This document shows, in pieces, positions 5,255-59,737 of a DNA stretch of 64,000 nucleotides. Position 1 is the stretch's first letter, and each line of letters begins with the position of its first letter. The stretch is from Patescibacteria group bacterium (GTDB lineage: Bacteria > Patescibacteriota > Minisyncoccia > UBA6257 > 1-14-0-10-40-38): positions 64,880-128,879 of the forward strand of contig JBBTRX010000002.1 in assembly GCA_038064975.1 (NCBI GenBank). The letters run 5' to 3'. Made by a program: the position numbers and the translations under genes. The notes beneath the pieces are model-generated. The model saw nothing but the letters and a program-made list of their open reading frames with translations. It ran no database searches and was not told the DNA's origin.

Positions 5255-5380
5255 TGTCGGGGTGCCGGGAGATCTCACGTCGTCCGGCAATGCCGGACTC
5301 CTTGAAACCCAGCGGTTTCAACAACTTCCGCATCGGGAAAACTCCCGATTTTTCCGACCCCTTTCCCGTTCGATTTTCCG
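5255..5380 (-). repeat. tRNA-3'-end-associated structured repeat, copy A (subtype 2), downstream of tRNA-Pro
   Basis: It begins (plus strand) with 19 nt identical to the tRNA-Pro 3' end plus trailer (ttctgtcggggtgccggga). The conserved core runs GATCTCACGTCG...CCGACCCCTTTCCCGTTCGATT, and the far end carries an inverted T-loop copy. It is about 90% identical to copies C and G. Confidence 0.8.
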
Positions 5381-5440
5381 AAAAGGATTTTTATTATCAT
5401 ATCACGCCGCACACTGGATTAATGGCGATTATCTGTTCTG

Positions 5441-5599: not shown

Positions 5600-7078
5600 T
5601 TACTTAACAAAATATTTCTTCTTGATCTCCTCATCGATGCGATGCTGCGCAGCGGATGCACTTTCTTTTGCCTTTCGTGCAAAATCCTCAAGCTCCTTAT
5701 CGGTCATCTTGCCCAATTCCTGAATTCTCTTTTCCAACACCTTTTTAGTATTGTATTTTGGATCTTCCAAAACTTCTTCCAAAAGCACCGCAAGAATTTT
5801 TCCAATCCGCGGTCCAGGAGACATCTTAAGGACGCGCATCACGTCTTCTCCATTCGCCTTCAACATCTTCGGGCTTACTGGATCTTTCTGTACTTTCTCA
5901 ATCATCGCGCGCAGATAGCGTAATCGATACGGTTGAGCCTTGGGCACACCGGATCCGATGCGATCCGCTTCGCGAAGTTTTAAAAGCGCATCTACATTGT
6001 CTTTACCAACACGCGCAATAAGCCGGCGTACACCCGCAAGAGTTACCGCTTCTGGATCGTATACAAACATATGCTCGCGCACTAAGAGAGCTACAGTCTC
6101 CGTAAGCGTTTTTGAGAAACGGAGGCGATCCATAATAGTTGCCGTCATCCGTTCGCCAACAACTTGATGTCCGTAAAAGGTAGAGTCCGGTCCATCCCCT
6201 TTTTTTGAACGCGGCTTTCCAACGTCATGAAAAAGTGACGCAAGGCGGATATGGAGCGGAAACCGTTCTGCTACCGCGTATTCCAATGATCGAAGATTAT
6301 GTTCAAAGACAGTATAGATATGATGCTTGTTTTGCGTTACGCTGATCCCCTCTTCAATTTCAGGAGCGATATGAATGAGAAGTTTGTGTGCGAGAAGCAT
6401 ACGCACACCCTCTGCAGCACGGTCGGTCAGCATGAGTTTTGTAAACTCATCGCGTATACGTTCCTTGGAAACATATGCCAAAAGCCCGCTCTGTTTTGTA
6501 ATCGCTTGTGCGGTCTTTTCTTCGATCGCAAATCCAAGCTGCGCACTAAACCGAATCGCCCGCAAAAGACGAAGAGCGTCTTCTTCAAATCGCTGCTCAG
6601 CCTTTCCTACGGCGCGAATAATTTTTTTCTTTAAATCTTCCTGTCCGTGATAAGGATCAACAATCAACTCTCTACTTGCATCGGTTATTTTTAATGCCAT
6701 CGCATTCACTGTAAAATCTCTGCGCGAGAGATCTTCTTCTATTGTAGAAGCGAAAGTTACCTCGTCTGGGTGACGCTTGTCACTATATTTCCCTTCAATA
6801 CGAAATGTCGTAACTTCAATTACTTTTAGTTTTGGATCTTCCGAATCCGTTTTTACTCCCACGGTGCCAAATTCATTTTCATATACTGAATCTGAGAATA
6901 ACTTTTGAATTTCTTCTGGCTTTGCATTCGTTGCGACGTCCCAGTCACTCGGACCTTCCGCAGGAGAATTCTCCATCATAATGTCCCGAACGCATCCGCC
7001 CACAAGATACGCATCAAAACCGCCCTCGTTTAAGCGTTCGGCGATCATTTTTACCTCTTTTGGGATGCGGCTTTTCAT
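5600..7078 (-). CDS. cca: CCA-adding tRNA nucleotidyltransferase with HD domain
   Basis: Pol-beta-like nucleotidyltransferase N-terminus (GGCVRD) plus a C-terminal HD domain (HDVGK). Confidence 0.8.
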   Translation of the reverse strand: MKSRIPKEVKMIAERLNEGGFDAYLVGGCVRDIMMENSPAEGPSDWDVATNAKPEEIQKLFSDSVYENEFGTVGVKTDSEDPKLKVIEVTTFRIEGKYSDKRHPDEVTFASTIEEDLSRRDFTVNAMALKITDASRELIVDPYHGQEDLKKKIIRAVGKAEQRFEEDALRLLRAIRFSAQLGFAIEEKTAQAITKQSGLLAYVSKERIRDEFTKLMLTDRAAEGVRMLLAHKLLIHIAPEIEEGISVTQNKHHIYTVFEHNLRSLEYAVAERFPLHIRLASLFHDVGKPRSKKGDGPDSTFYGHQVVGERMTATIMDRLRFSKTLTETVALLVREHMFVYDPEAVTLAGVRRLIARVGKDNVDALLKLREADRIGSGVPKAQPYRLRYLRAMIEKVQKDPVSPKMLKANGEDVMRVLKMSPGPRIGKILAVLLEEVLEDPKYNTKKVLEKRIQELGKMTDKELEDFARKAKESASAAQHRIDEEIKKKYFVK

Positions 7079-13951: not shown

Positions 13952-13976
13952 GATAAATTGTTTTGTTTTAAGAGTG

Positions 13977-14100
13977 TGCTCCCAAGGGGAGTCTCACGTC
14001 GCTTCACTCTTTAAAAACCGTCGGTTTTTAATATTTTCCTCCACGGGAGGAACCCGGCAGCTTTCCTCCCGACCCCTCCTTCGTTCGATTCTCTCTTGGG
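13977..14100 (-). repeat. tRNA-3'-end-associated structured repeat, copy B (subtype 1), downstream of tRNA-Glu
   Basis: It starts with a 14-nt copy of the tRNA-Glu 3' end (tgctcccaagggga). The subtype-1 core contains TTAAAAACCGTCGGTTTTTAA, CCTCCACGGGAGGA and CCTCCCGACCCCTCC. It ends in an inverted T-loop copy. Confidence 0.8.
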
Positions 14101-25720: not shown

Positions 25721-25910
25721 ATAAACCTCCTTTCAAGGTTCTAAAGAAAACAATACACCATTGCTTTAATAATCACAAAATTGACAATTACTTGTTAAAT
25801 CGCCTTAGGGCTTTTTTAGAATAAAAACGATAATTTTTATAAAATTTGAAATATAATTAACAGGCGAGCCTCGCCCAAAGCTGAACTATTTAAAATTAAT
25901 AAGGAAGCTT

Positions 25911-26032
25911 TGAGCGGGGTAGAGAGTCTCACATCGTCCGGCTCTGCCGGACTCTTTGAAACCCAGCGGTTTCAACAGCTTCCGCATCGGGGAAACTACC
26001 GATTTCCCCGACCCCCTTCCCGTTCGATTCTC
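25911..26032 (-). repeat. tRNA-3'-end-associated structured repeat, copy C (subtype 2), distal tandem copy at tRNA-Gly
   Basis: It starts with tgagcggggtagaga (a tRNA-Gly 3'-end mimic) and its core is about 90% identical to A and G. Confidence 0.8.
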
Positions 26033-26085
26033 TTCTTACTCATTCCAAATAAAATGACTCACTATCACGGTGAGTCATTTTACGT

Positions 26086-26246
26086 TGAGCGGGGTACGAG
26101 AGTCTCACGTCGTCCGGCTCTGCCGAACTCCTTAAAACCCATCGGTTTTAACTCGCTCACTTCGTTCGCTTTTCCGCCTCGGAGAAACTTCCGTTTCCCC
26201 GACCCTGCCTACCGGTAGGCAGGCCCCTTCCTGTTCGATTCTCTCT
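26086..26246 (-). repeat. tRNA-3'-end-associated structured repeat, copy D (divergent subtype 2 with palindromic insert), proximal copy at tRNA-Gly
   Basis: It starts with tgagcggggtacgaga, which is 16/16 identical to the tRNA-Gly 3' end. It shares the core 5' part with subtype 2. It shows the compensatory hairpin change TTGAAACC/GGTTTCAA to TTAAAACC/GGTTTTAA. It carries an extra 20-nt perfect palindrome CCTGCCTACCGGTAGGCAGG. Confidence 0.75.
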
Positions 26247-26300
26247 TTACTCATTCATAACAAAAACAACCCATCGCAAGAATGGACTGTTTTTGTTATG

Positions 26301-40290: not shown

Positions 40291-43200
40291 CTATTTTGCT
40301 CGGCGGATACCGACAACGATCGTTTCCTGATCAAGTTTTGTTTCTTGTTTTGCATCAAATGGCCGAGTCTCCATCCATGAGGCAGCGGCAAAATCCATTT
40401 CCTTCGCGCCAACCATACGAAGAAGCGTATCTTTATTCTTTTCAATCTGCTCCTGTAGTAATACAGACGCGGCAATCGTGATCATTACCGTATCTTTAAT
40501 GTCATATCCGGCATCTTGGCGAAGTTTTTGAATCATACGAGAAAGTTCGCGCATGAGCCCCTCGGCGCGCAATTCCGGAGTAATCGTGGCGTCCAATACA
40601 GTGTCCGCCCCTTGATCCTTTGAAAATACAATGTGCTTAACATTCACTTCGTCAGCTAAAATCGCGAGCAAAGCAGAATCTTTCACGGAAAGGATTTTTG
40701 TAACAATAGAGAGAGTGGAGAGCGGCTGGCGGATTTTTATTCCCAACTTTTCCCGTTCTGCGAGTGCAAGGTTCGCAAGGCGGCGCACTTCTTCCATGGC
40801 TTGGATCATTTTTTTATCGCTCACGCTCATAGTAATTTTTGGCCACAGAGCGATATGTACAGAATGCGATCCGGTCTTCTCCTTCTTCGTCGCGACAGCT
40901 TGGTATAGTCCTTCGCTGAAAAACGGAGCGAAAGGCGCCATATATTTTGAGAGCGTTACTAGAACAGTCTGAAGTGTTTTTGGCGAAACATTTTTTCGGC
41001 TCCTGCGAATATACCAGCGAGAAAGATCGTCGAGAAAAGTCTCCAGCGCCTTTGCTGCCGAATATACGTCGTATACATCCAGCTTCTTTGAAACCGTAAG
41101 TCCTACTTCGTTCAGACGGGCAAGAATCCACTGATCAAGTGCGGGAAGCGGATTGTGCTTTTCATGCTCGTACATTTTAGAAAACGCGAATGAGTTGTAC
41201 GTAATCAAGAAAACTTTACGGAACACCGTCTTCAAATCATCTTCGTTAAACCGCTTTGGCTCTCCTGGATCATTTAACGTAAAGAAATACCAGCGCACTG
41301 CATCAACGCCATGCGTCCCAATAAGCTGCCATGGATCAATAACATTGCCTTTGGATTTAGACATCTTCGCCCCATGCTTATCCAAAATATGCCCCAGAGA
41401 GATTACATTCTTGTATGGTTCTTTTTTGCCGAGAAGCGTTGAAACGGCAAGGAGGGTATAGAACCAACCGCGCGTCTGATCAACCGCTTCAGTAATATAA
41501 TCCGCCGGGAACTGTTTTTTACCATCCACCATCCCTTTGTGTTCAAACGGATAATGCCATGACGCAAAAGGCATTGCTCCGGAATCAAACCATACGTCCG
41601 CGACGTCAGGAATGCGTCTCATAGTTTTCCCGCAATCAGGACACTGTAATACTATTTCATCAATAAATGGCCGATGAGGGTCAATGGTCCCCGTCTCGTT
41701 ATAGGGAAGGTTCATAACTGTACGACTGATCCATTTTCCAGGCAGGATATACTCCGCTTCTTTAATCTCTGCCGTAAGGTTCATGCCATCCAAAATTGCA
41801 CTCAAAACCCATAAAGGATCGCCGTGGCTCACAACCGCGATACGCTTGCCAGCGTACTGTGCACGGACATCTTTCATAAAACTCGTAACACGCCGGGCAA
41901 GATCAATGAGCGTTTCCCCTCCTTCGGGCGTTTTCGTGAACCGTTCCTCAAAGCTATTAAAGAATGCATGGTAATCATCTACGGGAGCCCGATTAAAAAC
42001 TCCGACATTAATTTCCCGTATGCGCTCGTCGTACACAATTTCCGCTCCCGTTGCTTCACTTACAATTTCCGCCGTTTCTTTAGCACGAGCGAAAGGCGAT
42101 GAGATAATAAGATCAATCTTTTTCTTTTTTAAATCTGCACCAGCTTTCTTTGCTTGTGTTTTCCCTTTAGCCGTAAGGAGCGAAGGACGCTCGTCATCCC
42201 CTGCCATTTGATTCTTCGTATTATGTTCCGCCTCGCCGTGGCGGATCAAGAAAAATTCCGCTTGAGGAAGCGCATGTTTTTCTAAGTCTTCAAACGATCC
42301 CGCAACAAACGTATGTACACATATCTCGCCCTTCCAAATTGGAAGCGGCGTTCCCCAATACCGGTTGCGGGATATTGCCCAATCTTTCAGTTCCTTTAAC
42401 CACTCACCAAACCTTCCCTCGCGCACATGGCTTGGGATCCAATTCACGCGAGCATTCTCTGCAATAAGCTGACTCTTCAATTCACTCATGCGGATGAACC
42501 ATGAATTCCGTGCGTAATAGATAAGAGCAGTCCCGCATCTCCAGCAATGCGGATACTCGTGGGTATACTGTTCGGTTTTTAAGAGCAGATTTTTTGACTG
42601 CAGATATTCAATAATTGTCGTTTCCGTCAATTTTGCTTTTACAAAACGTCCCGCAAGATCTTTTACTTCGTCAGTGAACTTTCCTTCCTCCGTTACGGTA
42701 TGTTTCTGTGGCAAGCCAATTTTGACGCCAAGTTCATAATCGTCTTCTCCGTACATGACTGCGGTATGCACAACACCCGTGCCATCTTCAGTTGTTACAA
42801 AATCAGCCGCATATACGCGGTGCGATTTCTCACTCCGGAGCGATGGAATATCAAAAAGCGGCTCGTATTCCAATTCTATTAAGTCTTTTCCCTTCACGGT
42901 TACAACAACCTCTCCCAATACCTCTTTAAGTGAGGAGTCGTGAGCAACTACAGCATATTCTCCGTTTTGGGAGCGCACGACATAGGAGATATTTTTCCCT
43001 ACCGCGAGAGCGACGTTGCCCGGCAAAGTCCACGGCGTTGTAGTCCACGAGAGAATATAGGTATTGTCTGTTGTTTTCCAATTCCCTATTTTTTGGCCCG
43101 GCTTTAATTTGAACTTTACATAGACTGACGTATCAGTCACTTCCTTGTATCCTTGGGCAAGCTCGTGAGAAGAGAGCGCGGTTCCGCATCGCGTGCACCA

Positions 43201-43734
43201 CGGAATAATCTTATGCCCTTCGTAGAGTAGTTTTTTCTTCCAGACTTCTTTAAATATCCAAAATAAAGATTCAATATATGATGAATCCGAGGTTACATAC
43301 GCGTTCTCCCTATCCAACCAAAATCCAATGCGTTCGGTAAAGTTTTCCCACTCCGTGCGATATCTCCAAACGGAAGCGCGCGCTTTTTCATTAAACTGCG
43401 CGATGCCATACCGTTCTATATCCTGTTTGTTCCGAAGTCCCAGTTCTTTTTCCACTTCAATTTCAACCGGAAGCCCATGAGTGTCCCATCCTGCTCTCCG
43501 TAAAATAGAATGCCCGCGCATCGTTTTGTAGCGCAAAATAATATCCTTAAACGCACGGACAAGAATATGATGCGTGCCGGGACGGCCATTTGCAGTCGGA
43601 GGGCCTTCAAAAAAACGGAATGGCTTCCCCCGCTTTCGTGCAGCGGTCGTTTTTGGAAAGATTTGATTTTCTTTCCAGAATTTCAGAACTTGCTCCTCAA
43701 GTTCCGGTAAATTGAATTTATCTTTTTCAAGCAT
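40291..43734 (-). CDS. ileS: isoleucine--tRNA ligase carrying an inserted histidine-phosphatase (PGAM-like) domain
   Basis: PTANGRPGTHH and KMSKSKGN motifs identify IleRS. About 230 aa are inserted between WGTPLPIW and DVWFDSG. The insert contains RHGEAEHN, IDLIISSPFARAKETAE, SHGD, and a CPDC zinc knuckle. Confidence 0.9.
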   Translation of the reverse strand: MLEKDKFNLPELEEQVLKFWKENQIFPKTTAARKRGKPFRFFEGPPTANGRPGTHHILVRAFKDIILRYKTMRGHSILRRAGWDTHGLPVEIEVEKELGLRNKQDIERYGIAQFNEKARASVWRYRTEWENFTERIGFWLDRENAYVTSDSSYIESLFWIFKEVWKKKLLYEGHKIIPWCTRCGTALSSHELAQGYKEVTDTSVYVKFKLKPGQKIGNWKTTDNTYILSWTTTPWTLPGNVALAVGKNISYVVRSQNGEYAVVAHDSSLKEVLGEVVVTVKGKDLIELEYEPLFDIPSLRSEKSHRVYAADFVTTEDGTGVVHTAVMYGEDDYELGVKIGLPQKHTVTEEGKFTDEVKDLAGRFVKAKLTETTIIEYLQSKNLLLKTEQYTHEYPHCWRCGTALIYYARNSWFIRMSELKSQLIAENARVNWIPSHVREGRFGEWLKELKDWAISRNRYWGTPLPIWKGEICVHTFVAGSFEDLEKHALPQAEFFLIRHGEAEHNTKNQMAGDDERPSLLTAKGKTQAKKAGADLKKKKIDLIISSPFARAKETAEIVSEATGAEIVYDERIREINVGVFNRAPVDDYHAFFNSFEERFTKTPEGGETLIDLARRVTSFMKDVRAQYAGKRIAVVSHGDPLWVLSAILDGMNLTAEIKEAEYILPGKWISRTVMNLPYNETGTIDPHRPFIDEIVLQCPDCGKTMRRIPDVADVWFDSGAMPFASWHYPFEHKGMVDGKKQFPADYITEAVDQTRGWFYTLLAVSTLLGKKEPYKNVISLGHILDKHGAKMSKSKGNVIDPWQLIGTHGVDAVRWYFFTLNDPGEPKRFNEDDLKTVFRKVFLITYNSFAFSKMYEHEKHNPLPALDQWILARLNEVGLTVSKKLDVYDVYSAAKALETFLDDLSRWYIRRSRKNVSPKTLQTVLVTLSKYMAPFAPFFSEGLYQAVATKKEKTGSHSVHIALWPKITMSVSDKKMIQAMEEVRRLANLALAEREKLGIKIRQPLSTLSIVTKILSVKDSALLAILADEVNVKHIVFSKDQGADTVLDATITPELRAEGLMRELSRMIQKLRQDAGYDIKDTVMITIAASVLLQEQIEKNKDTLLRMVGAKEMDFAAASWMETRPFDAKQETKLDQETIVVGIRRAK

Positions 43735-46746: not shown

Positions 46747-47088
46747 GGGGATGCCGGGCTTCGATAAGGCATATTCTCTACAGATGGCATGCCGAGCCGC
46801 AATATCTCGTTAACCTGTTGCAAACTATAACTGCAAACCACAAAGTTGCAGCACCAGCATTTGCCTTTGCGTAAGTGCGTGGTGTCCCCTTCCATTAATG
46901 GAAGGGCATCGGTCCTGACGCTTCATAGGGATTAACCGGTGTTATATCTGATGCTCAAGATGCGCGAAGATTAGGATTCGTCGGCACGCATTCGAAAACC
47001 AAATGAATTCTTTGTTTCTTTTGAAACTAAGCATGTAGAAGTTTGTTCTGAACATCCTTAGATGTGGGTTCAACTCCCACCATCTCCA
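46747..47088 (+). ncRNA. ssrA: transfer-messenger RNA (tmRNA, ssrA)
   Basis: 5' GGGGATG pairs with 3' CATCTCC and includes a G3:U pair. There is a tRNA-like T-arm (GTGGGTTCAACTCCCAC). An internal tag ORF, with resume codon GCA, encodes ANHKVAAPAFAFA followed by a stop. The gene lies next to smpB. Confidence 0.8.
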
Positions 47089-47098
47089 CAAATAAAAA

Positions 47099-47130
47099 TA
47101 GCTCGCCGTTATGGCGAGTTGTTTTTATTT
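47099..47130 (+). terminator. rho-independent terminator after tmRNA
   Basis: CTCGCCgttatGGCGAG followed by TTGTTTTTATTT. Confidence 0.6.
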
Positions 47131-47276
47131 CATGGTGGGAGTTGAACTGAAAGGAGGGGTCGGGAGGAGAGGTATTCCTCCCGTGGAGGAAAAAATCCAG
47201 CAACGCTGGATGAGTTAAAAACCGACGGTTTTTAAAAGGAGTGAAACGACGCGTGAAATTCCCACCATCTCCACCA
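47131..47276 (+). repeat. tRNA-3'-end-associated structured repeat, copy E (subtype 1), downstream of tmRNA
   Basis: The 5' end catggtgggagttgaac is the antisense of the tmRNA T-arm. The 3' end ttcccaccatctccacca mimics the tmRNA 3' end. The subtype-1 core motifs are present, with a variable hairpin TCCAGCgttGCTGGA. Confidence 0.8.
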
Positions 47277-47349
47277 TTTTGACACCCGCGCAGAAACTAG
47301 GGTATTTTGTGTTTAGTTCCCTCCCTAGTTCATCGACAAGGAGATAGCC

Positions 47350-47964
47350 ATGACAGAAGTAGTTAAGCTTGAAGGTCGTGTTCGACTGTTGGGATATGGA
47401 CCAGACGAAGTTCGTATCGGTGATCTCTTGGAACAAGAAGTGGATCTCGTTCAAGGTATGGTAAATGGTCATCAGTGGATCACGGTCCAAGATGGACGGA
47501 TACAATCCACGCCAACGAGAGAAGAACTCCCCTGTCCTACGGAAGACGAAAACATGCTTCCGTTTTGGAGGAGACATCAAGAAAGCGACGAGTCTCATCG
47601 CATGGAGCAATTGACGTTCGTAGATGACTTACAAGGAATTTATTCACCATCGTTTTCCATTCAACATTTGTGCGGATATTACTACACGAGAGAGAAATAC
47701 GAACAAGAAGCAGTAAAGCTCGAGAGCTATGGATTCCAATGTCTGCGCTCAAGACGCGACGTAAGCGGGAGATACTGGGAAATCTGGTATCTGCCTAGCC
47801 TCTTCTCTTCAGCTCAAGGCGAGCTGAAAGAAACAATCAAAGGTTTGAAGGAAGAAAAAGCGCAAACGGCGCGTGCAATTCAATTCCTTTGTAGAAACAT
47901 TTCTTTTGGAACGCTTGATGTATCCATCCAGCGAGCAGCAATGACTATGGACGATTACTGGTAA
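47350..47964 (+). CDS. hypothetical protein
   Basis: 204-aa ORF with its own terminator at 47974..48014. No recognisable domain. Confidence 0.4.
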   Translation: MTEVVKLEGRVRLLGYGPDEVRIGDLLEQEVDLVQGMVNGHQWITVQDGRIQSTPTREELPCPTEDENMLPFWRRHQESDESHRMEQLTFVDDLQGIYSPSFSIQHLCGYYYTREKYEQEAVKLESYGFQCLRSRRDVSGRYWEIWYLPSLFSSAQGELKETIKGLKEEKAQTARAIQFLCRNISFGTLDVSIQRAAMTMDDYW

Positions 47965-47973
47965 GCCAAGCAG

Positions 47974-48014
47974 AGACCCCTATTCGTCTTCGGACGAGCA
48001 GGGGTCTTTTTTTC
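47974..48014 (+). terminator. rho-independent terminator
   Basis: AGACCCCtattcgtcttcggacgagcaGGGGTCT followed by TTTTTTT. Confidence 0.6.
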
Positions 48015-48295
48015 ATCTTTTGACACCTCCGTAAAAACCCGATACGTTATGCTTAGTTCTTCGACAGCCCAAACCAAAAGGAAGTCCTATGTCTGCCCTT
48101 ACCGTGATCGAGGTCATACTTTTCCTCTTTGCGATCCCTGGTCCATTTTTGATTGGTTTTAGAATTGGTCATCGTGATCACCTACACGGAACAGCTACGA
48201 GAATTTTTTACGTATCTGCTCTCTTTTTCGTAGCAGCAGCGACACTTCATATCCTGCGGATGTAGTCCCTCAAACCCAACAAAAGGAGAAGACTC

Positions 48296-49048
48296 ATGAA
48301 CAGTTCTACTGTTCTCGCTCTACTTGAACGCTTTGGCGCGATTATTACAAATGACCATATTGTCTATACATCGGGTCGACACGGTGATATGTACATCAAT
48401 AAAGATGCGATCTATCCCCATACCGAAATAGTATTCTCCCTTTGTCGTGAACTTGCCAATCGGTTTCTTGAAGAACCTGCGGATGTCGTCGTTGCTCCTG
48501 CGCAGGGAGGCATCATCCTTTCCCAATGGGTAGCACGTCACTTAAGTGTCATGCTTAAGAGAGATGTGCTCGCCGTTTACGCCGAAAAGTCCGCGGACGG
48601 TACGACGTTCGTTTTGAGACGCGGGTATGATAACCTCGTTGCTGATAAACGAGTTCTGGTTGTGGAAGATATTCTTACAACCGGCGGTTCGGTACGCAAA
48701 GTAGTGGAGCTCGTACGCAAGCATGGTGGCGACGTTTTTGGCGTGGGTGCACTCGTGAATCGTGGAGGAGTTACTACTCGCGATGTAGGCAATGTGCTGG
48801 ATCTCGTTTCACTCCTGAAACTTGATCTTGATACATGGAGCGAAGAGCAATGCCCGCTCTGCCAAAAAGGGACTCCTATTAATACAAATGTAGGCAAGGG
48901 ACTGGAGTTTATGGAACGCAAATACGCTCGTAGTCGCTGGACATGTGACGGATGCGAAACGGAAATGACGCCATCCACATCAGAGAAACGACCCAACAAA
49001 CTTCTTTGTTCGCGTTGTATCGGAGAAGCAGGAGACTCTTTCGGTTAA
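48296..49048 (+). CDS. type I phosphoribosyltransferase (OPRT-like) fused to a C-terminal zinc ribbon
   Basis: PRPP-binding motif VLVVEDILTTGGS, followed by CPLC...CDGC...CSRC. Confidence 0.6.
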   Translation: MNSSTVLALLERFGAIITNDHIVYTSGRHGDMYINKDAIYPHTEIVFSLCRELANRFLEEPADVVVAPAQGGIILSQWVARHLSVMLKRDVLAVYAEKSADGTTFVLRRGYDNLVADKRVLVVEDILTTGGSVRKVVELVRKHGGDVFGVGALVNRGGVTTRDVGNVLDLVSLLKLDLDTWSEEQCPLCQKGTPINTNVGKGLEFMERKYARSRWTCDGCETEMTPSTSEKRPNKLLCSRCIGEAGDSFG

Positions 49049-49061
49049 GCCGTAGCTCCAC

Positions 49062-49101
49062 AAGAACCCTTATCATCCCAAGAGATACGGGTTCTTTTTA
49101 T
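49062..49101 (+). terminator. rho-independent terminator
   Basis: GAACCC...GGGTTC stem followed by TTTTTATTT. Confidence 0.5.
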
Positions 49102-49178
49102 TTGACAGTCCCCTAAATCTTCAAGCATAATCCCCACGTATTCAGTCCCCGTTCATTTACAAGCAAAAGGAGACCATC

Positions 49179-49679
49179 ATGAGCCCGTTTCTGGAAGAAG
49201 AGCATAAAGAACATATCAACTACGCCCCTCACCAATTCACATCTCAAGAGATGCAGGAATTAGAACAAATCATCATTGCGTCGGAAGACGCGACTGATTA
49301 TGCGAAAAGACTTTTTGTCTGGCTTCTCCGTGAGACGAATCATTTCACCCGTCGCGTCGCCGTATCGCTCCGAAACGCAGCCGTGGGCGAACAACTCGTG
49401 AACGAAGTGCGCCAAAGCGCCCGAGCAATCATGGGATGCTACGGCACAACCGATCTTTTTAGAAAAATTGGGATTTATGGAACGCAAATGAATTTCACAC
49501 ACCATCAAGGATGTTTCAATGCAGAAGGGTTTGACATGATGGAAGATGGGCACACTTTCTGGTACACGTTCATCTATCACGATAGCCGTGCAACGGTTCT
49601 CCCCCTTCCGTCACAAGAAGTATTGGAAGCGATCTCACTAGAATCTAAATCCTCCAAAGAGGACGAGGATGAGTCATAG
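49179..49679 (+). CDS. hypothetical protein
   Basis: 166-aa ORF with a TTGACA-18-CATAAT promoter upstream at about 49099..49128. Confidence 0.4.
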   Translation: MSPFLEEEHKEHINYAPHQFTSQEMQELEQIIIASEDATDYAKRLFVWLLRETNHFTRRVAVSLRNAAVGEQLVNEVRQSARAIMGCYGTTDLFRKIGIYGTQMNFTHHQGCFNAEGFDMMEDGHTFWYTFIYHDSRATVLPLPSQEVLEAISLESKSSKEDEDES

Positions 49680-49810
49680 ATCTAAAGCGCACGACCCCCC
49701 GGTACGGCGCCTTTTCTTTTTCCATAATTTTCGCTAGTGTTGTTTTAGTACTCGTCCTCATCACCCAATACCAATCCGGATTTGCCGGACAAGGAGAAAG
49801 GACACGAAAG

Positions 49811-50047
49811 ATGACACCTGAAGAACAGAAAGGGCATCTGTTACGTATTGCAAATTCTTACTGCAAAACAAGACACCCCGACTACTACAAATCTTTGATA
49901 TATAGTGGACCAGGCGAAGGACCGCCATGCTCAGATTGCCGCGCAGAAGTGCGGCGCGATTATGAACTGAAGCAGGCAAAATTTCGGGGAAGAATCCTTT
50001 CCCCCGAGGAGGCAAGGGCGGTACGAAATAGCCATCGACTTCCCTAG
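49811..50047 (+). CDS. hypothetical small protein
   Basis: 78 aa, followed by a terminator at 50077..50117. Confidence 0.35.
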   Translation: MTPEEQKGHLLRIANSYCKTRHPDYYKSLIYSGPGEGPPCSDCRAEVRRDYELKQAKFRGRILSPEEARAVRNSHRLP

Positions 50048-50195
50048 GCCATGAATCTCTTGAGATTTTGCGACCCAGTCCCCGTATTGCTTTCACGAGC
50101 AGAACGGGGCTTTTTTTCGCGACACTTGATACGATTTCTAAAACATGGTAATATAATCCCTTCGTTCCTTTACATAACCGTTCTTTAGGGAGGAG

Positions 50196-50477
50196 ATGCC
50201 TGTGACGCTTACGGAAGAGTGGACCGTAGATCGTGTCTTGGAAGAAACGGGAAGAGACCCTCGCAACAAGGGATATACCGCGGAGATTTGCGGTAATTCT
50301 CGTTGTAACGGAAAGGCAAACGTTTTGAGACGCCTTCCTTCGTGGCAATGTGAGTGTGGAAGATGGAATCTCATTCCCACCGAGCGCGCGAATGTGAATC
50401 TGCATGAAGAACCCACGATCGGCCCCCCCGCTCAACTCATTTATGCCGCCAACATGAGAAGAGCGCGCCATGGCTAG
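50196..50477 (+). CDS. hypothetical small zinc-ribbon protein
   Basis: 93 aa with the spacing C..C...CxC. A TTGATA-17-TAATAT promoter sits upstream at about 50093..50121. Confidence 0.35.
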   Translation: MPVTLTEEWTVDRVLEETGRDPRNKGYTAEICGNSRCNGKANVLRRLPSWQCECGRWNLIPTERANVNLHEEPTIGPPAQLIYAANMRRARHG

Positions 50478-50654
50478 TGCAGAGAAAGAGCCGAACACTC
50501 GACCTTTGGTACGTGACCTCTTGATGCTCTGCAAGATTAAGGAGCATGAAGGTTGTCCGCGAATCATGAGCACCCCTTCGGCAATGATCCGATGTAACTG
50601 CACCTGCCACGAAAAACCCAAGAGAAGAAAGATTTGGGGATAGTGCTAAGACCC

Positions 50655-50690
50655 GAGCCCCTTTGCTTTCGCAAAGGGGCTCTTTTTTTA
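50655..50690 (+). terminator. rho-independent terminator
   Basis: 12-bp stem GAGCCCCTTTGC/GCAAAGGGGCTC followed by TTTTTTT. Confidence 0.65.
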
Positions 50691-50721
50691 CAAGCGATTT
50701 ACATAATCTCAAAAATTCAAT

Positions 50722-51159
50722 ATGTGGGAATTTTATTTTTCATACCCCCTGCCTTATACTAACTCCAGCAGTTTGATTCACTCATACGCCGAACATCTCA
50801 AGGAGACTACAGTGGCGAAGAAAACCCGAACCAAGACTCCCCCGTCCCCCTTCATAAGAGTAGAGCCGCTCAACAAACGAGAGCTTACAGTAATAAAAAA
50901 GAGCCTTATGAAGAAGGATGAGAAAGAAAGCGCTAGAATAAAAAAGGTTGGTGAATGCACGGCCTGCTATGGAGAAGTTGTAAAAGAAACCATCCAAATC
51001 TTCCCACGCACAGACTTCATAGGGCACCAAGCTAGTTATCCCGAAACAACCTACCACTGCAACATGTGTGGTCTCATGTACAAGTACCCACCGAAGAAAG
51101 GCACGATTAGACGGCAAGCCGTACAAAACCCTATTTATAGACACGACATAGAAGATTAA
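50722..51159 (+). CDS. hypothetical protein with Cys cluster
   Basis: 145 aa with CTACYG...CNMCG, followed by a terminator at 51166..51197. Confidence 0.35.
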   Translation: MWEFYFSYPLPYTNSSSLIHSYAEHLKETTVAKKTRTKTPPSPFIRVEPLNKRELTVIKKSLMKKDEKESARIKKVGECTACYGEVVKETIQIFPRTDFIGHQASYPETTYHCNMCGLMYKYPPKKGTIRRQAVQNPIYRHDIED

Positions 51160-51213
51160 GTAGGTCCGCCCCCCCCGCAAAACGGGGGTCTTTTTTATCT
51201 CTTTACAAGTTTC

Positions 51214-51753
51214 ATGAAACCGCATATACTAACCCTACCCTTGAAAAACCAGCCAAAACTTAATCATCAAATCAAAGCATCTGAAGTCCGGGTACTCACC
51301 GATTCGGGAGAAAACTTGGGCGTGATGGAACTTCCGAAAGCTCTCACTATGGCCCGCGAACAGGGCCTTGATCTTATTGAAGTAAGCGACAAAGCGAAGC
51401 CGCCTGTCGTCCGCATCATGAGCTTTGATAAGTACCGCTACCAAGAAGAGAAGAAGCTCAAAAAACAGCGGTCCGGAGAAAAGGTGAAGGAAGTAAAACA
51501 GGTGCAAGTCTCTGTTCGTTCCGCGAAACATGACCTTGGGGTCAAGGCAAAACGGGTAAATGAATTCCTTGAAGCGGGACATCCGGTAGCGCTTGTTATG
51601 ACGCTCCGCGGAAGAGAGAAGGCAAACAAAGATTGGGCGAAGAAAAAACTTGAAGAATTCCTCGAACTTATCACTACCCCTTTCCAACGAATCTCAAATA
51701 TTCATCCCGGCGGAAGAGGTCTTGTAATGCAAATTGTTCCGACCAAAAAATAA
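51214..51753 (+). CDS. infC: translation initiation factor IF-3
   Basis: IF-3 N- and C-domains (VRVLTDSGENLGV..., KQVQVSVRSAKHDL). A TTTACA-17-TATACT promoter sits upstream at 51196..51226. Confidence 0.85.
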   Translation: MKPHILTLPLKNQPKLNHQIKASEVRVLTDSGENLGVMELPKALTMAREQGLDLIEVSDKAKPPVVRIMSFDKYRYQEEKKLKKQRSGEKVKEVKQVQVSVRSAKHDLGVKAKRVNEFLEAGHPVALVMTLRGREKANKDWAKKKLEEFLELITTPFQRISNIHPGGRGLVMQIVPTKK

Positions 51754-51759
51754 GTATAT

Positions 51760-51933
51760 ATGAAACGAAGTATTCAGAGCCGATTTACACTCACCGGTAC
51801 TGGTAAACTCAAACGCCAACCGATGGGCAAAGGCCACAACAAAGCAAAAAAGACGGGAAAACAAAAACACGGAAAGCGCGTTGCCCTTCACGTACACGGA
51901 GCTGACCGCAAAAACATTTTGAAATACTTCTAA
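51760..51933 (+). CDS. rpmI: 50S ribosomal protein L35
   Basis: 57-aa basic protein (MKRSIQSRFTLTGTGKLKRQ...HGKRVALHV) in the canonical infC-rpmI-rplT position. It was absent from the ORF track because it is under 60 aa. Confidence 0.6.
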   Translation: MKRSIQSRFTLTGTGKLKRQPMGKGHNKAKKTGKQKHGKRVALHVHGADRKNILKYF

Positions 51934-51937
51934 ATCT

Positions 51938-52282
51938 ATGACACGAGTAAAACGAGGCGTTACTGCCAATAAACGGAGAAAGAATGTTTTAAAAGCGGCA
52001 AAAGGATTCCGCTGGAGCAGAAAATCCAAAGAGCGCGCAGCTAAAGAAGCTTTGCTTCATTCGCTTACGAATAAATTCCGTGGCAGAAAAGAAAAGAAGC
52101 GCGTGAATCGCGCCCTCTGGCAAGTCAAAATCAATGCAGCTGTCCGACCCGAAGGAATGAAATATTCAACCTTCATCGGAGCACTCAAGAAAAAGAACAT
52201 TATCATTGACCGCAAAGTACTCGCTGATCTCGCGGAACATGAACCGAAAGTATTTAAGAAAATAGTGGAAAGCGTGAAATAA
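51938..52282 (+). CDS. rplT: 50S ribosomal protein L20
   Basis: MTRVKRGVTANKRRKNVLKAAKGFRWSR is the classic L20 N-terminus. Confidence 0.85.
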   Translation: MTRVKRGVTANKRRKNVLKAAKGFRWSRKSKERAAKEALLHSLTNKFRGRKEKKRVNRALWQVKINAAVRPEGMKYSTFIGALKKKNIIIDRKVLADLAEHEPKVFKKIVESVK

Positions 52283-52394
52283 TAAAAAAGTATAAGGTAG
52301 TAGGTATAAGGTATAAAGCAAAAACCGCCTTTCGGCGGTTTTTTAGTGCAATTTTTTACTTAAAAACTGTTCAACTGATTAACTCTTTAACTCA

Positions 52395-52655
52395 TTAACT
52401 GGAAAAAGAAACGCCTTCCTTTTTGAGGATGCGTTTCTTTTTTGCTGTTCCCCACGCGAAACCACCCGGATTTCCATCCGCGCGAATAACGCGATGACAA
52501 GGAACTTTAGGATCCCGATTTTTGTTCAGAATGTTCCCCACCGCTCGGTAGGCTCGGGGATTCCCCGCGATGCGCGCTATTTCTTGGTACGTGCGCGTTT
52601 CGCCTCGGGGGATTCTTTGGACCGCCTGATATACCTTTCTCCTGAAGGAAGTCAT
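52395..52655 (-). CDS. methylated-DNA--protein-cysteine methyltransferase, C-terminal (DNA-binding/active-site) domain only
   Basis: PCHRV active-site motif and the YQEIARIAGNPRAYRAVG helix-turn-helix. Confidence 0.7.
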   Translation of the reverse strand: MTSFRRKVYQAVQRIPRGETRTYQEIARIAGNPRAYRAVGNILNKNRDPKVPCHRVIRADGNPGGFAWGTAKKKRILKKEGVSFSS

Positions 52656-59252: not shown

Positions 59253-59416
59253 GGAGCACCCCCTTTCTTTTTGTTTAGAAGACTGTGAAAGAGCATATCT
59301 GAAACCAGAGTCACCCTATGCCAAAATGACTACGACGTCAATCATCGAGGCGATAGAAATTTTTGATATGAAAAATCCACGGCAGAAAAATGAGGATATT
59401 TTTTTATTTTACGGAG

Positions 59417-59552
59417 TGCTCCCGGCAGGAGATCTCACGCGTCGCTTTGCTCATGCTTAAAAACCGTCGGTTTTTAACATTCCGCCTTTCGGCGGATTTT
59501 CCTACACGGGAGGAGTACCTCTCCTCCCGACCCCTCCTCTCAGTTCGATTTC
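59417..59552 (-). repeat. tRNA-3'-end-associated structured repeat, copy F (subtype 1), distal tandem copy at tRNA-Arg(CCG)
   Basis: It starts gtgctcccggcagga, a tRNA-Arg 3'-end mimic. The subtype-1 core is present, with a variable hairpin CCGCCtttcGGCGG. Confidence 0.8.
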
Positions 59553-59603
59553 TAACGGGAGAAAGTATAAAAATAAATAACCCCGATGGGGTCATTTATT
59601 TTT

Positions 59604-59726
59604 GTGCTCCCGGCAGGAGGTCTCACGTCGTCCGGCTCTGCCGGACTCTTTGAAACCCAGCGGTTTCAACAGCTTCCGCCTCGGGGAAACTTCCGTTTCC
59701 CCGACCCCTTTCCCGTTCGACTCCTG
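59604..59726 (-). repeat. tRNA-3'-end-associated structured repeat, copy G (subtype 2), proximal copy at tRNA-Arg(CCG)
   Basis: It starts gtgctcccggcagga. The core is about 90% identical to A and C. It folds into a closing stem GCAGGAG/CTCCTGC with three internal hairpins. Confidence 0.8.
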
Positions 59727-59737
59727 CTACAGGAAAA

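Follow-up and report, generated by a model that had tools for sequence, protein, structure and literature searches.

What fills the roughly 4 kb between the transfer-messenger RNA (tmRNA) gene ssrA and infC, the gene of initiation factor IF-3, in a small bacterial genome, and by which route might this DNA have arrived? The question is raised by a 64,000-nt stretch of DNA (the whole of it is referred to below as the window) from a Patescibacteria group bacterium, where a block at 47279–51198 harbors eight plus-strand open reading frames (ORFs), designated here P1 to P8, in six predicted transcription units. The host is a Paceibacteria genome, i.e., a member of the Candidate Phyla Radiation (CPR), from the Hainich groundwater well H51 (0.1-µm fraction, ENA ERZ1292627); the proteins of this island are also present in an NCBI metagenome-assembled genome with the locus tags AAB407_. 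Overall, the block (47.28–51.20 kb) is probably a species-specific accessory cluster accreted at an insertion-tolerant junction, with the ssrA terminator on one side and the infC promoter on the other. This reading draws on the absence of the block from relatives, its atypical composition, the membership of P1, P3, and P8 in recognizable families, and its anatomy.

The ssrA–infC junction in this genome and in its relatives

The upstream anchor of the block, ssrA (46747–47089, plus strand), is complete according to ARAGORN (tag ANHKVAAPAFAFA) and Rfam (RF00023, 122 bits), and its intrinsic terminator (a hairpin of −13 kcal/mol, then a T-run) is located at 47099–47129 on the same strand. The downstream anchor is infC (51214–51753, plus strand; PF05198 and PF00707), followed by rpmI and rplT. 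The junction was compared in 80 species-representative relatives found via SmpB, the best of them showing 68% SmpB identity. These are Paceibacteria-type Patescibacteria (Wolfe-, Jorgensen-, Harrison-, Kaiserbacteria, and others), in which the order IleRS–ArgRS–(PD-(D/E)XK)–SmpB–ssrA–IF3–L35–L20–NUDIX–PolX is widely conserved at an SmpB identity of 49–68%; infC takes this position in 59 of the related loci.

None of the eight island genes was found at this site in any of the 80 relatives by tblastn of their loci. An earlier note on this DNA, made from the sequence alone, had called the run of genes an island, a view that conservation in all relatives with matching composition would have contradicted. 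The lineage-specific island is borne out: the block is carried by none of the 80, and its composition is atypical. Its GC content (0.4725 vs. 0.4504 ± 0.0133 in the other 4-kb segments of the window) falls into the top 5%, so the higher GC suggested in the same note is real but modest. The strand-symmetrized tetranucleotide distance, amounting to 0.224 vs. 0.153 ± 0.013 (a deviation of 5 sd), makes this the most deviant 4-kb segment.

In many relatives, the two anchors are close neighbors. Among the loci with called tmRNA and IF-3, 18 have a gap that does not exceed 160 bp, and ten further loci, in which the tmRNA was missed by ARAGORN, display an SmpB-to-IF3 distance of 320–400 bp; hence, ssrA abuts infC in approximately 28 relatives. 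In other loci with both genes called, the gap reaches 0.26–1 kb (nine loci) or 1–5 kb (13 loci), and the gap of 4125 bp documented here is among the largest. Altogether, the junction is enlarged in about 24 of the 52 comparable Paceibacteria genomes, each time by different cellular genes. The fillers include BipA, PabA/PabB together with dUTPase, a GT2 glycosyltransferase, an AIR-synthase-like protein, a saccharopine-dehydrogenase-like protein, a trypsin-like protease, SDR, SNase, and an HTH-M78 protein, as well as NlpC/P60, NUDIX, and peptidase S51 in the closest relative with long flanks (locus L004). No integrase was encountered among the fillers of the enlarged junctions. The ssrA–infC junction is thus a permissive site, enlarged independently in many Paceibacteria.

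Horizontal gene transfer and genomic islands have been documented in aquifer Patescibacteria (PMC12455944). The block resembles the variable regions described there: it belongs to a small CPR genome, is lineage-specific or acquired, and is rich in hypothetical genes; the exchange partners of the aquifer islands include other Patescibacteria. Unlike those islands, the present case concerns one recurrently enlarged junction that can be compared across 80 species.

A side observation concerns the isoleucyl-tRNA synthetase of the conserved flank (40291–43734, minus strand, 1147 aa): a histidine-phosphatase domain (PF00300, RHGE motif) is inserted between the halves of its tRNA-synt_1 domain.

Genes, gene families, and predicted signals of the island

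The ORFs follow each other in the order P1 / P2 + P3 / P4 / P5 / P6 + P7 / P8, where a terminator closes each of the units separated by slashes. The earlier note had counted six genes of 78–250 aa in this place; the plus-strand run up to infC was described correctly, whereas the count has to be corrected to eight ORFs in six units, P2 and P7 having been missed.

The most familiar protein of the island is encoded by P3 (48296–49048, plus strand, 250 aa). Its phosphoribosyltransferase (PRTase) domain is matched by PF00156 at 2e-15 and by the orotate phosphoribosyltransferase (OPRT) structure PDB 4paw at 5e-13. The best NCBIfam match is the Thermus-type PyrE (TIGR01367), at 134.2 bits and under the cut-off of 150.25. 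The search returned 4594 homologs, and the top ones, from CPR, Deltaproteobacteria, Verrucomicrobia, and Elusimicrobia, are approximately 210 aa long, cover 84% of the query, and share 55–64% identity with it. In an alignment of 13 PyrE-family sequences (A1) in which P3 itself is one of the rows, P3 keeps all 57 invariant columns. Two CPR homologs (P0026 and P0007) are situated directly past the gene of orotidine 5′-monophosphate decarboxylase (pyrF) and overlap it; homologs of P3 are translationally coupled to pyrF, and this neighborhood identifies the family as PyrE. No pyrF was found in the 64-kb window around P3. As judged from these comparisons, P3 is predicted to be a pyrE-type OPRT separated from its usual partner.

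The layout of P3 comprises the PyrE part (residues 1–210) followed by an appended ribbon of about 45 aa with the pairs C217/C220 and C238/C241. The residues 211–250 (CDGC...CSRC) are unique to P3 within the alignment A1, and the pair C186/C189 (CPLC) is invariant across the whole family of the ~210-aa enzymes. Accordingly, the OPRT-like protein fused to a triple-CxxC ribbon, as it had been depicted in the earlier note, can be sharpened to a PyrE in which only the last two CxxC pairs are appended. P3 shares with the Thermus-type PyrE the fold, the phosphoribosyl pyrophosphate (PRPP) loop VLVVEDILTTGGS, the C-terminal CPLC...GKG motif, and the occurrence of its close homologs in pyrF–pyrE pairs. 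It differs from that type in scoring below the NCBIfam cut-off, in having no pyrF within 64 kb, in carrying the extra zinc ribbon of ~45 aa, and in its pairing with P2 (48089–48265, plus strand), which precedes P3 in one unit. P2 is a 58-aa membrane peptide which, inspected by eye, features two hydrophobic helices linked by a His-rich loop; it is called but unnamed in ENA, Logan, and NCBI. As a side observation, this PyrE clade has repeatedly gained different small zinc modules at either terminus, e.g., an N-terminal CxxCxGxG pair in the P3 homologs P0035 and P0113 and a C-terminal rubredoxin-like ribbon in P0042.

Two more proteins of the island belong to families which, as the alignments show, are real and conserved. 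P1 (47350–47964, plus strand, 204 aa) has 138 homologs of about 200 aa at 40–50% identity, none with a Pfam domain; all those with a source name are of the Patescibacteria type (Moranbacteria, Parcubacteria, Paceibacterota). The family features strongly conserved motifs (alignment A3) in mutually unrelated gene neighborhoods. The AlphaFold2 (AF2) model of P1 is good (pLDDT 79) and combines a small beta domain with a ferredoxin-like one; it yielded no significant fold match in PDB or BFVD. Relatives of P1 are also present on nine IMG/VR contigs. On one of these (L088, 8001–14242), the relative is followed by a PD-(D/E)XK nuclease, RecT, and DnaB, a neighborhood representing a credible phage module; on L089 and L091 (8001–9073), the P1-family gene is directly followed by a PolX/PHP-like ORF.

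The other, P8 (50812–51159, plus strand), is a basic protein of 115 aa if read from the GTG at 50812, a start backed by the N-termini of its homologs and by AAGGAG 7 nt upstream. Its ten distant homologs (E 1e-8 to 8e-4), which validate P8 as a gene, share the invariant ribbon GxCxxCxG...YHCxxCGxxYxFPP, and relatives of P8 are present on three IMG/VR contigs. The family is sparse, and P8 is one of its rare zinc-ribbon proteins of the C4 type.

By contrast with these families, the acidic ORFan P4 (49179–49679, plus strand, 166 aa) matches only itself among 5.8 billion proteins, and scans of viral and metagenome contigs were also empty; its single-sequence AF2 model is uninformative (pLDDT 42). 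Three further ORFs may encode small Cys-containing proteins, the reality of which is uncertain. P5 (49811–50047, plus strand, 78 aa) is a putative gene of a basic product with one CxxC, preceded by a GGAG ribosome-binding site and closed by a terminator of its own. P6 (50202–50477, plus strand) measures 91 aa from the GTG at 50202, or 93 aa from the ATG at 50196, and features Cx4C...CxC; its GC content is 0.53, GGAGG is located 8 nt ahead of the GTG start, and no relatives were detected in viral contigs. P7 (50470–50643, plus strand, 57 aa) is another putative gene, its product being basic with five Cys, and its start overlaps the stop of P6 by 8 nt.

The coding potential of the ORFs was evaluated with a codon log-odds model trained on 45 long ORFs of the window, the training genes scoring 0.228 ± 0.08. 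The scores of P1–P4 are host-like, ranging in frame from 0.13 to 0.22 (P1 0.13, P2 0.14, P4 0.17), well above the other five frames, whereas those of P5–P8, from −0.11 to 0.06 (P5 −0.03, P6 0.06, P7 −0.11), are inseparable from the antisense frames. P6 is annotated by the NCBI pipeline (PGAP) as AAB407_01050, on the strand opposite to an antisense ORF; P5 and P7 are missing from all annotations, and the sequence of P5 is absent from the protein collection. Overall, P1–P4, P6, and P8 are credible genes, P5 and P7 being plausible only. The antisense ORF (49761–50621, minus strand; 286 aa, or 268 aa in the ENA and Logan calls), which covers P5–P7, is probably spurious: its codon score is 0.00, it is rich in R, S, and L, and it runs across two plus-strand terminators. 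No paralogy was found among P1–P8, nor between them and the ORFs of the relatives' islands.

The strong terminators of the hairpin plus T-run kind reported in the earlier note were recovered, all six of them on the coding strand, 7–32 nt past the stops of P1, P3, P4, P5, P7, and P8. They are located, from unit 1 to unit 6, at 47975–48014 (−21 kcal/mol, T7 run), 49064–49102 (−11.8 kcal/mol), 49687–49719 (weak, −10.7 kcal/mol), 50080–50118 (−16.6 kcal/mol), 50655–50690 (a 12-bp stem, −23 kcal/mol, T7 run), and 51172–51198 (−11 kcal/mol), the last one forming the distal edge of the island. Their density in the island exceeds the background approximately 2.3-fold (P ~0.05).

The near-consensus promoters mentioned in the same note are confirmed for two genes only: P1, with TTGACA-18-TATTTT at 47279–47308 (10 of 12 positions), and P4, with TTGACA-18-CATAAT at 49102–49131 (11 of 12). 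The promoter-like sites of P6 (TTGATA-17-TAATAT with a TG before it, 50126–50154) and P8 (TTTACA-18-AAAAAT, 50687–50716) match at 9 of 12 positions. Ahead of P2, only a −35-like TTGACA (48021–48026) lacking a good −10 was read by eye and was not called by the promoter scan, and no recognizable promoter was found upstream of P5. In four units (P1, P4, P6, and P8), the promoter-like hexamers, all on the plus strand, come directly past the preceding terminator.

Element E and its family

The space between the ssrA terminator and the island is taken up by a structured element of 144 nt, termed here element E (47131–47274, plus strand; 105 bits with the covariance model R1), which is outside the island proper. 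In its 5′ arm (47132–47149), the T-loop, T-stem, and first acceptor bases of the tmRNA recur in inverted orientation, and its 3′ arm (47260–47274) repeats the tmRNA 3′ end in direct orientation. The latter contains the displaced tmRNA fragment CCCACCATCTCCAC at 47261–47274, 172 nt past ssrA and upstream of the island; the first unit begins with its promoter-like site 5 nt past the element.

Element E is one representative of a widespread family of structured elements trailing tRNA and tmRNA genes, which is absent from Rfam: no Rfam family matches element E or anything in the island. The window holds seven copies, all past tRNA or tmRNA genes (Pro, Glu, Gly with two copies, Arg-ccg with two, and tmRNA), and more than 80 others come from relatives and metagenomes. 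Apart from element E, they were located from the repeats and the model R1 on the minus strand at 5256–5384, 13976–14099, 25910–26038, 26085–26249, 59416–59559, and 59604–59731; the copies past tRNA-Gly and tRNA-Arg are arranged in tandem. Typically, the element is approximately 130 nt in size and sits 20–70 nt downstream of the tRNA or tmRNA gene, usually with a terminator in between. It comprises a 5′ arm, which is an inverted copy of the T-loop and of the 3′ strand of the T-stem of its own tRNA, a core of conserved hairpins, and a 3′ arm directly copying the 3′ strands of the T-stem and acceptor through the discriminator base.

A search with the core pattern revealed at least 119 stretches in metagenome contigs and no match in IMG/VR. 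In the 80 metagenome stretches kept for analysis (L102–L181), a same-strand tRNA gene is located directly upstream in 55, representing 16 amino-acid types, and 33 carry the 3′-end repeat. The 5′ arm matches the own tRNA over 11.7 nt on average vs. 6.9 nt for other tRNAs. In 82 copies, 95.5% of the cells pair, and double-sided compensatory cells number 112 vs. 28.6 ± 5.4 in shuffles; one helix of the element varies only between G-C and G-U, which suggests a folded single strand of the tRNA sense. Literature searches returned nothing relevant to the element.

Does element E mark the boundary of the island? The earlier note had regarded it as a flanking copy of the tmRNA end. The copy is there, and all it bounds is the 144-nt element to which it belongs, ahead of the block. 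In other species, the tmRNA, the element, and the displaced fragment occur without the island, e.g., in L040 (the fragment at +154 nt, just before infC) and L061 (+191); R1 also matches in L068 and L022, and the element is present in the loci L004 and L006. Since the same arrangement exists without the island, copy E is not the island boundary. A different situation is seen in L004 (3880–6710), where ssrA is followed by two to three copies whose ends match the tmRNA. Two of these bracket 2.4 kb that encode NlpC/P60 and NUDIX; infC is not found within 10 kb downstream.

A retro-origin of the tmRNA copy, considered in view of the CCA at 47275–47277, was rejected: across 33 copies, the triplet past the repeat mirrors that of the tRNA gene, AAA being the commonest one and CCA not being among the twelve commonest. 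Two related side observations are that most tRNA genes and the tmRNA gene in the window do not encode CCA and that the gene of the CCA-adding enzyme (5600–7078, minus strand) adjoins tRNA-Pro and its trailing element.

Possible routes to the present locus

If accessory genes did accrete here, at a permissive junction, the block would have been gained gene by gene, with phages or other CPR gene pools as part of the source. Illegitimate or homologous recombination, rather than a tDNA integrase, would account for the entry. Each of the six self-contained units has a ribosome-binding site and a terminator, four of them also a recognizable sigma-70-type promoter, and P2 would be co-transcribed with P3. 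We propose that, owing to such self-containment, the new genes could be expressed without disturbing ssrA or the infC–rpmI–rplT operon.

Several circumstances weigh against this reading. The deviant tetranucleotide usage may stem partly from the high share of intergenic signal sequences in the block. P5 and P7, without homologs or annotation and with poor codon scores, could be non-coding. The promoter-like sites occur at chance frequency (12 vs. 13.1 ± 3.6 in shuffles), and the transcription of six units, like their translation, is a prediction from the sequence; the genes being short and monocistronic, the regular layout is real but largely a by-product. Moreover, with no relative above 68% SmpB identity, the age and order of the insertions cannot be dated from this set. 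Finally, the relatives of P1 and P8 in viral contigs leave room for an origin from a decayed phage.

The latter possibility, unlikely but the strongest of the competitors, is that a phage or another integrative element inserted at the tmRNA 3′ end and lost its integrase and distal attachment (att) site, so that only moron-like cargo was left. The block lies directly past ssrA, a classic target of integration; under the Islander definition, an island combines a regenerated tDNA with an integrase and, at its far end, a displaced piece of the tDNA (PMC4383910). It resembles such tDNA islands in following an intact ssrA, in being absent from relatives, in its atypical composition, and in its uncharacterized cargo. 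It departs from them in having neither a tyrosine integrase nor a distal tmRNA fragment, whereas its sole tmRNA fragment, 171–185 nt past ssrA, bounds a separate element of 144 nt, which is found alone beside ssrA in L040, L061, and L068. Neither integrase, transposase, nor phage hallmark was found in the eight ORFs with Pfam, PHROGs, and NCBIfam, and the block contains no excisionase, structural, or replication gene. The PHROGs matches are limited to generic PRTase families, and there is no integrase, transposase, or phage hallmark among the precomputed Pfam calls of the genes within ±10 kb. At the distal side, exact and 3-mismatch searches for the tmRNA 3′ end found nothing, and 47300–52500 contains no match of 10 nt or longer to the last 50 nt of the tmRNA. 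The block thus bears no sign of a classic integrated element or of capture by an integrase, and an element remnant, one of the possible readings of the earlier note, is unlikely.

As in phage morons, the genes are short and individually insulated by their own terminators, often by their own promoters, and deviate in composition; unlike morons, they are not inside a prophage, and no phage hallmark genes are nearby. The P1 relatives on the nine IMG/VR contigs, one of them beside RecT, PD-(D/E)XK, and DnaB, and the P8 relatives on three speak for a viral past; still, large IMG/VR contigs could be CPR DNA assigned to viruses in error. In addition, the enlarged gaps elsewhere are filled with ordinary cellular genes and free of att repeats, which speaks against a decayed element.

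More doubtful is the participation of element E itself. It is improbable, though conceivable, that the element serves a site-specific system, independent of any integrase, as its recombination or guide module, with the ssrA–infC island and the 2.4 kb of L004 as its captured cargo; it is the bracketed cargo of L004 that keeps such a capture platform alive at a low probability. A slightly less probable version is an integron-like platform, where element E, by virtue of a hairpin mimicking the T-arm, recruits single-gene cassettes. The start of the island 5 nt past the element, the bracketing in L004, the tandem copies past tRNA-Gly and tRNA-Arg, and the structured and widespread nature of the element are consistent with it. 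Likewise, the island resembles an integron cassette array as a series of single-gene units beside a structured hairpin element; it differs from such arrays in that promoters and terminators come with the units themselves, with no intI, no attC-type repeat per unit, and no repeat family common to the unit boundaries. An unfiltered covariance-model scan near 51.2 kb detected no second copy at the distal side, and no copy was found between or after the six units. Most of the enlarged ssrA–infC gaps in the relatives lack the element, and the elements are usually without cargo. No recombinase family recurs beside the 78 metagenomic copies, and the clustering of 223 downstream ORFs yielded no family with three or more members beside the element.

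An anti-phage defense island or a stress-peptide locus, as the earlier note had also contemplated, is very unlikely: small Cys-rich proteins, a PRTase domain as in some defense effectors, and a variable locus would fit, but PADLOC is empty save for a weak generic match of the PRPP loop to ShosT (E 0.018), the PRTase is 55–64% identical to pyrF-linked PyrE enzymes, and neither nuclease, ATPase, or sensor domains in the island proteins (Pfam, NCBIfam) nor defense genes within ±10 kb were found.

Taken alone, the island adds to the examples of lineage-specific gene gain in streamlined CPR genomes. It is valuable as a clean, datable case, with flanks conserved in 80 species and a junction filled independently many times; as a natural landing pad, this junction is useful for work on the gain and insulation of genes in ultra-small genomes. 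P1, P8, and P3 deserve structural or biochemical work. Still, the family of elements trailing tRNA and tmRNA genes may be a more important lead than the island.

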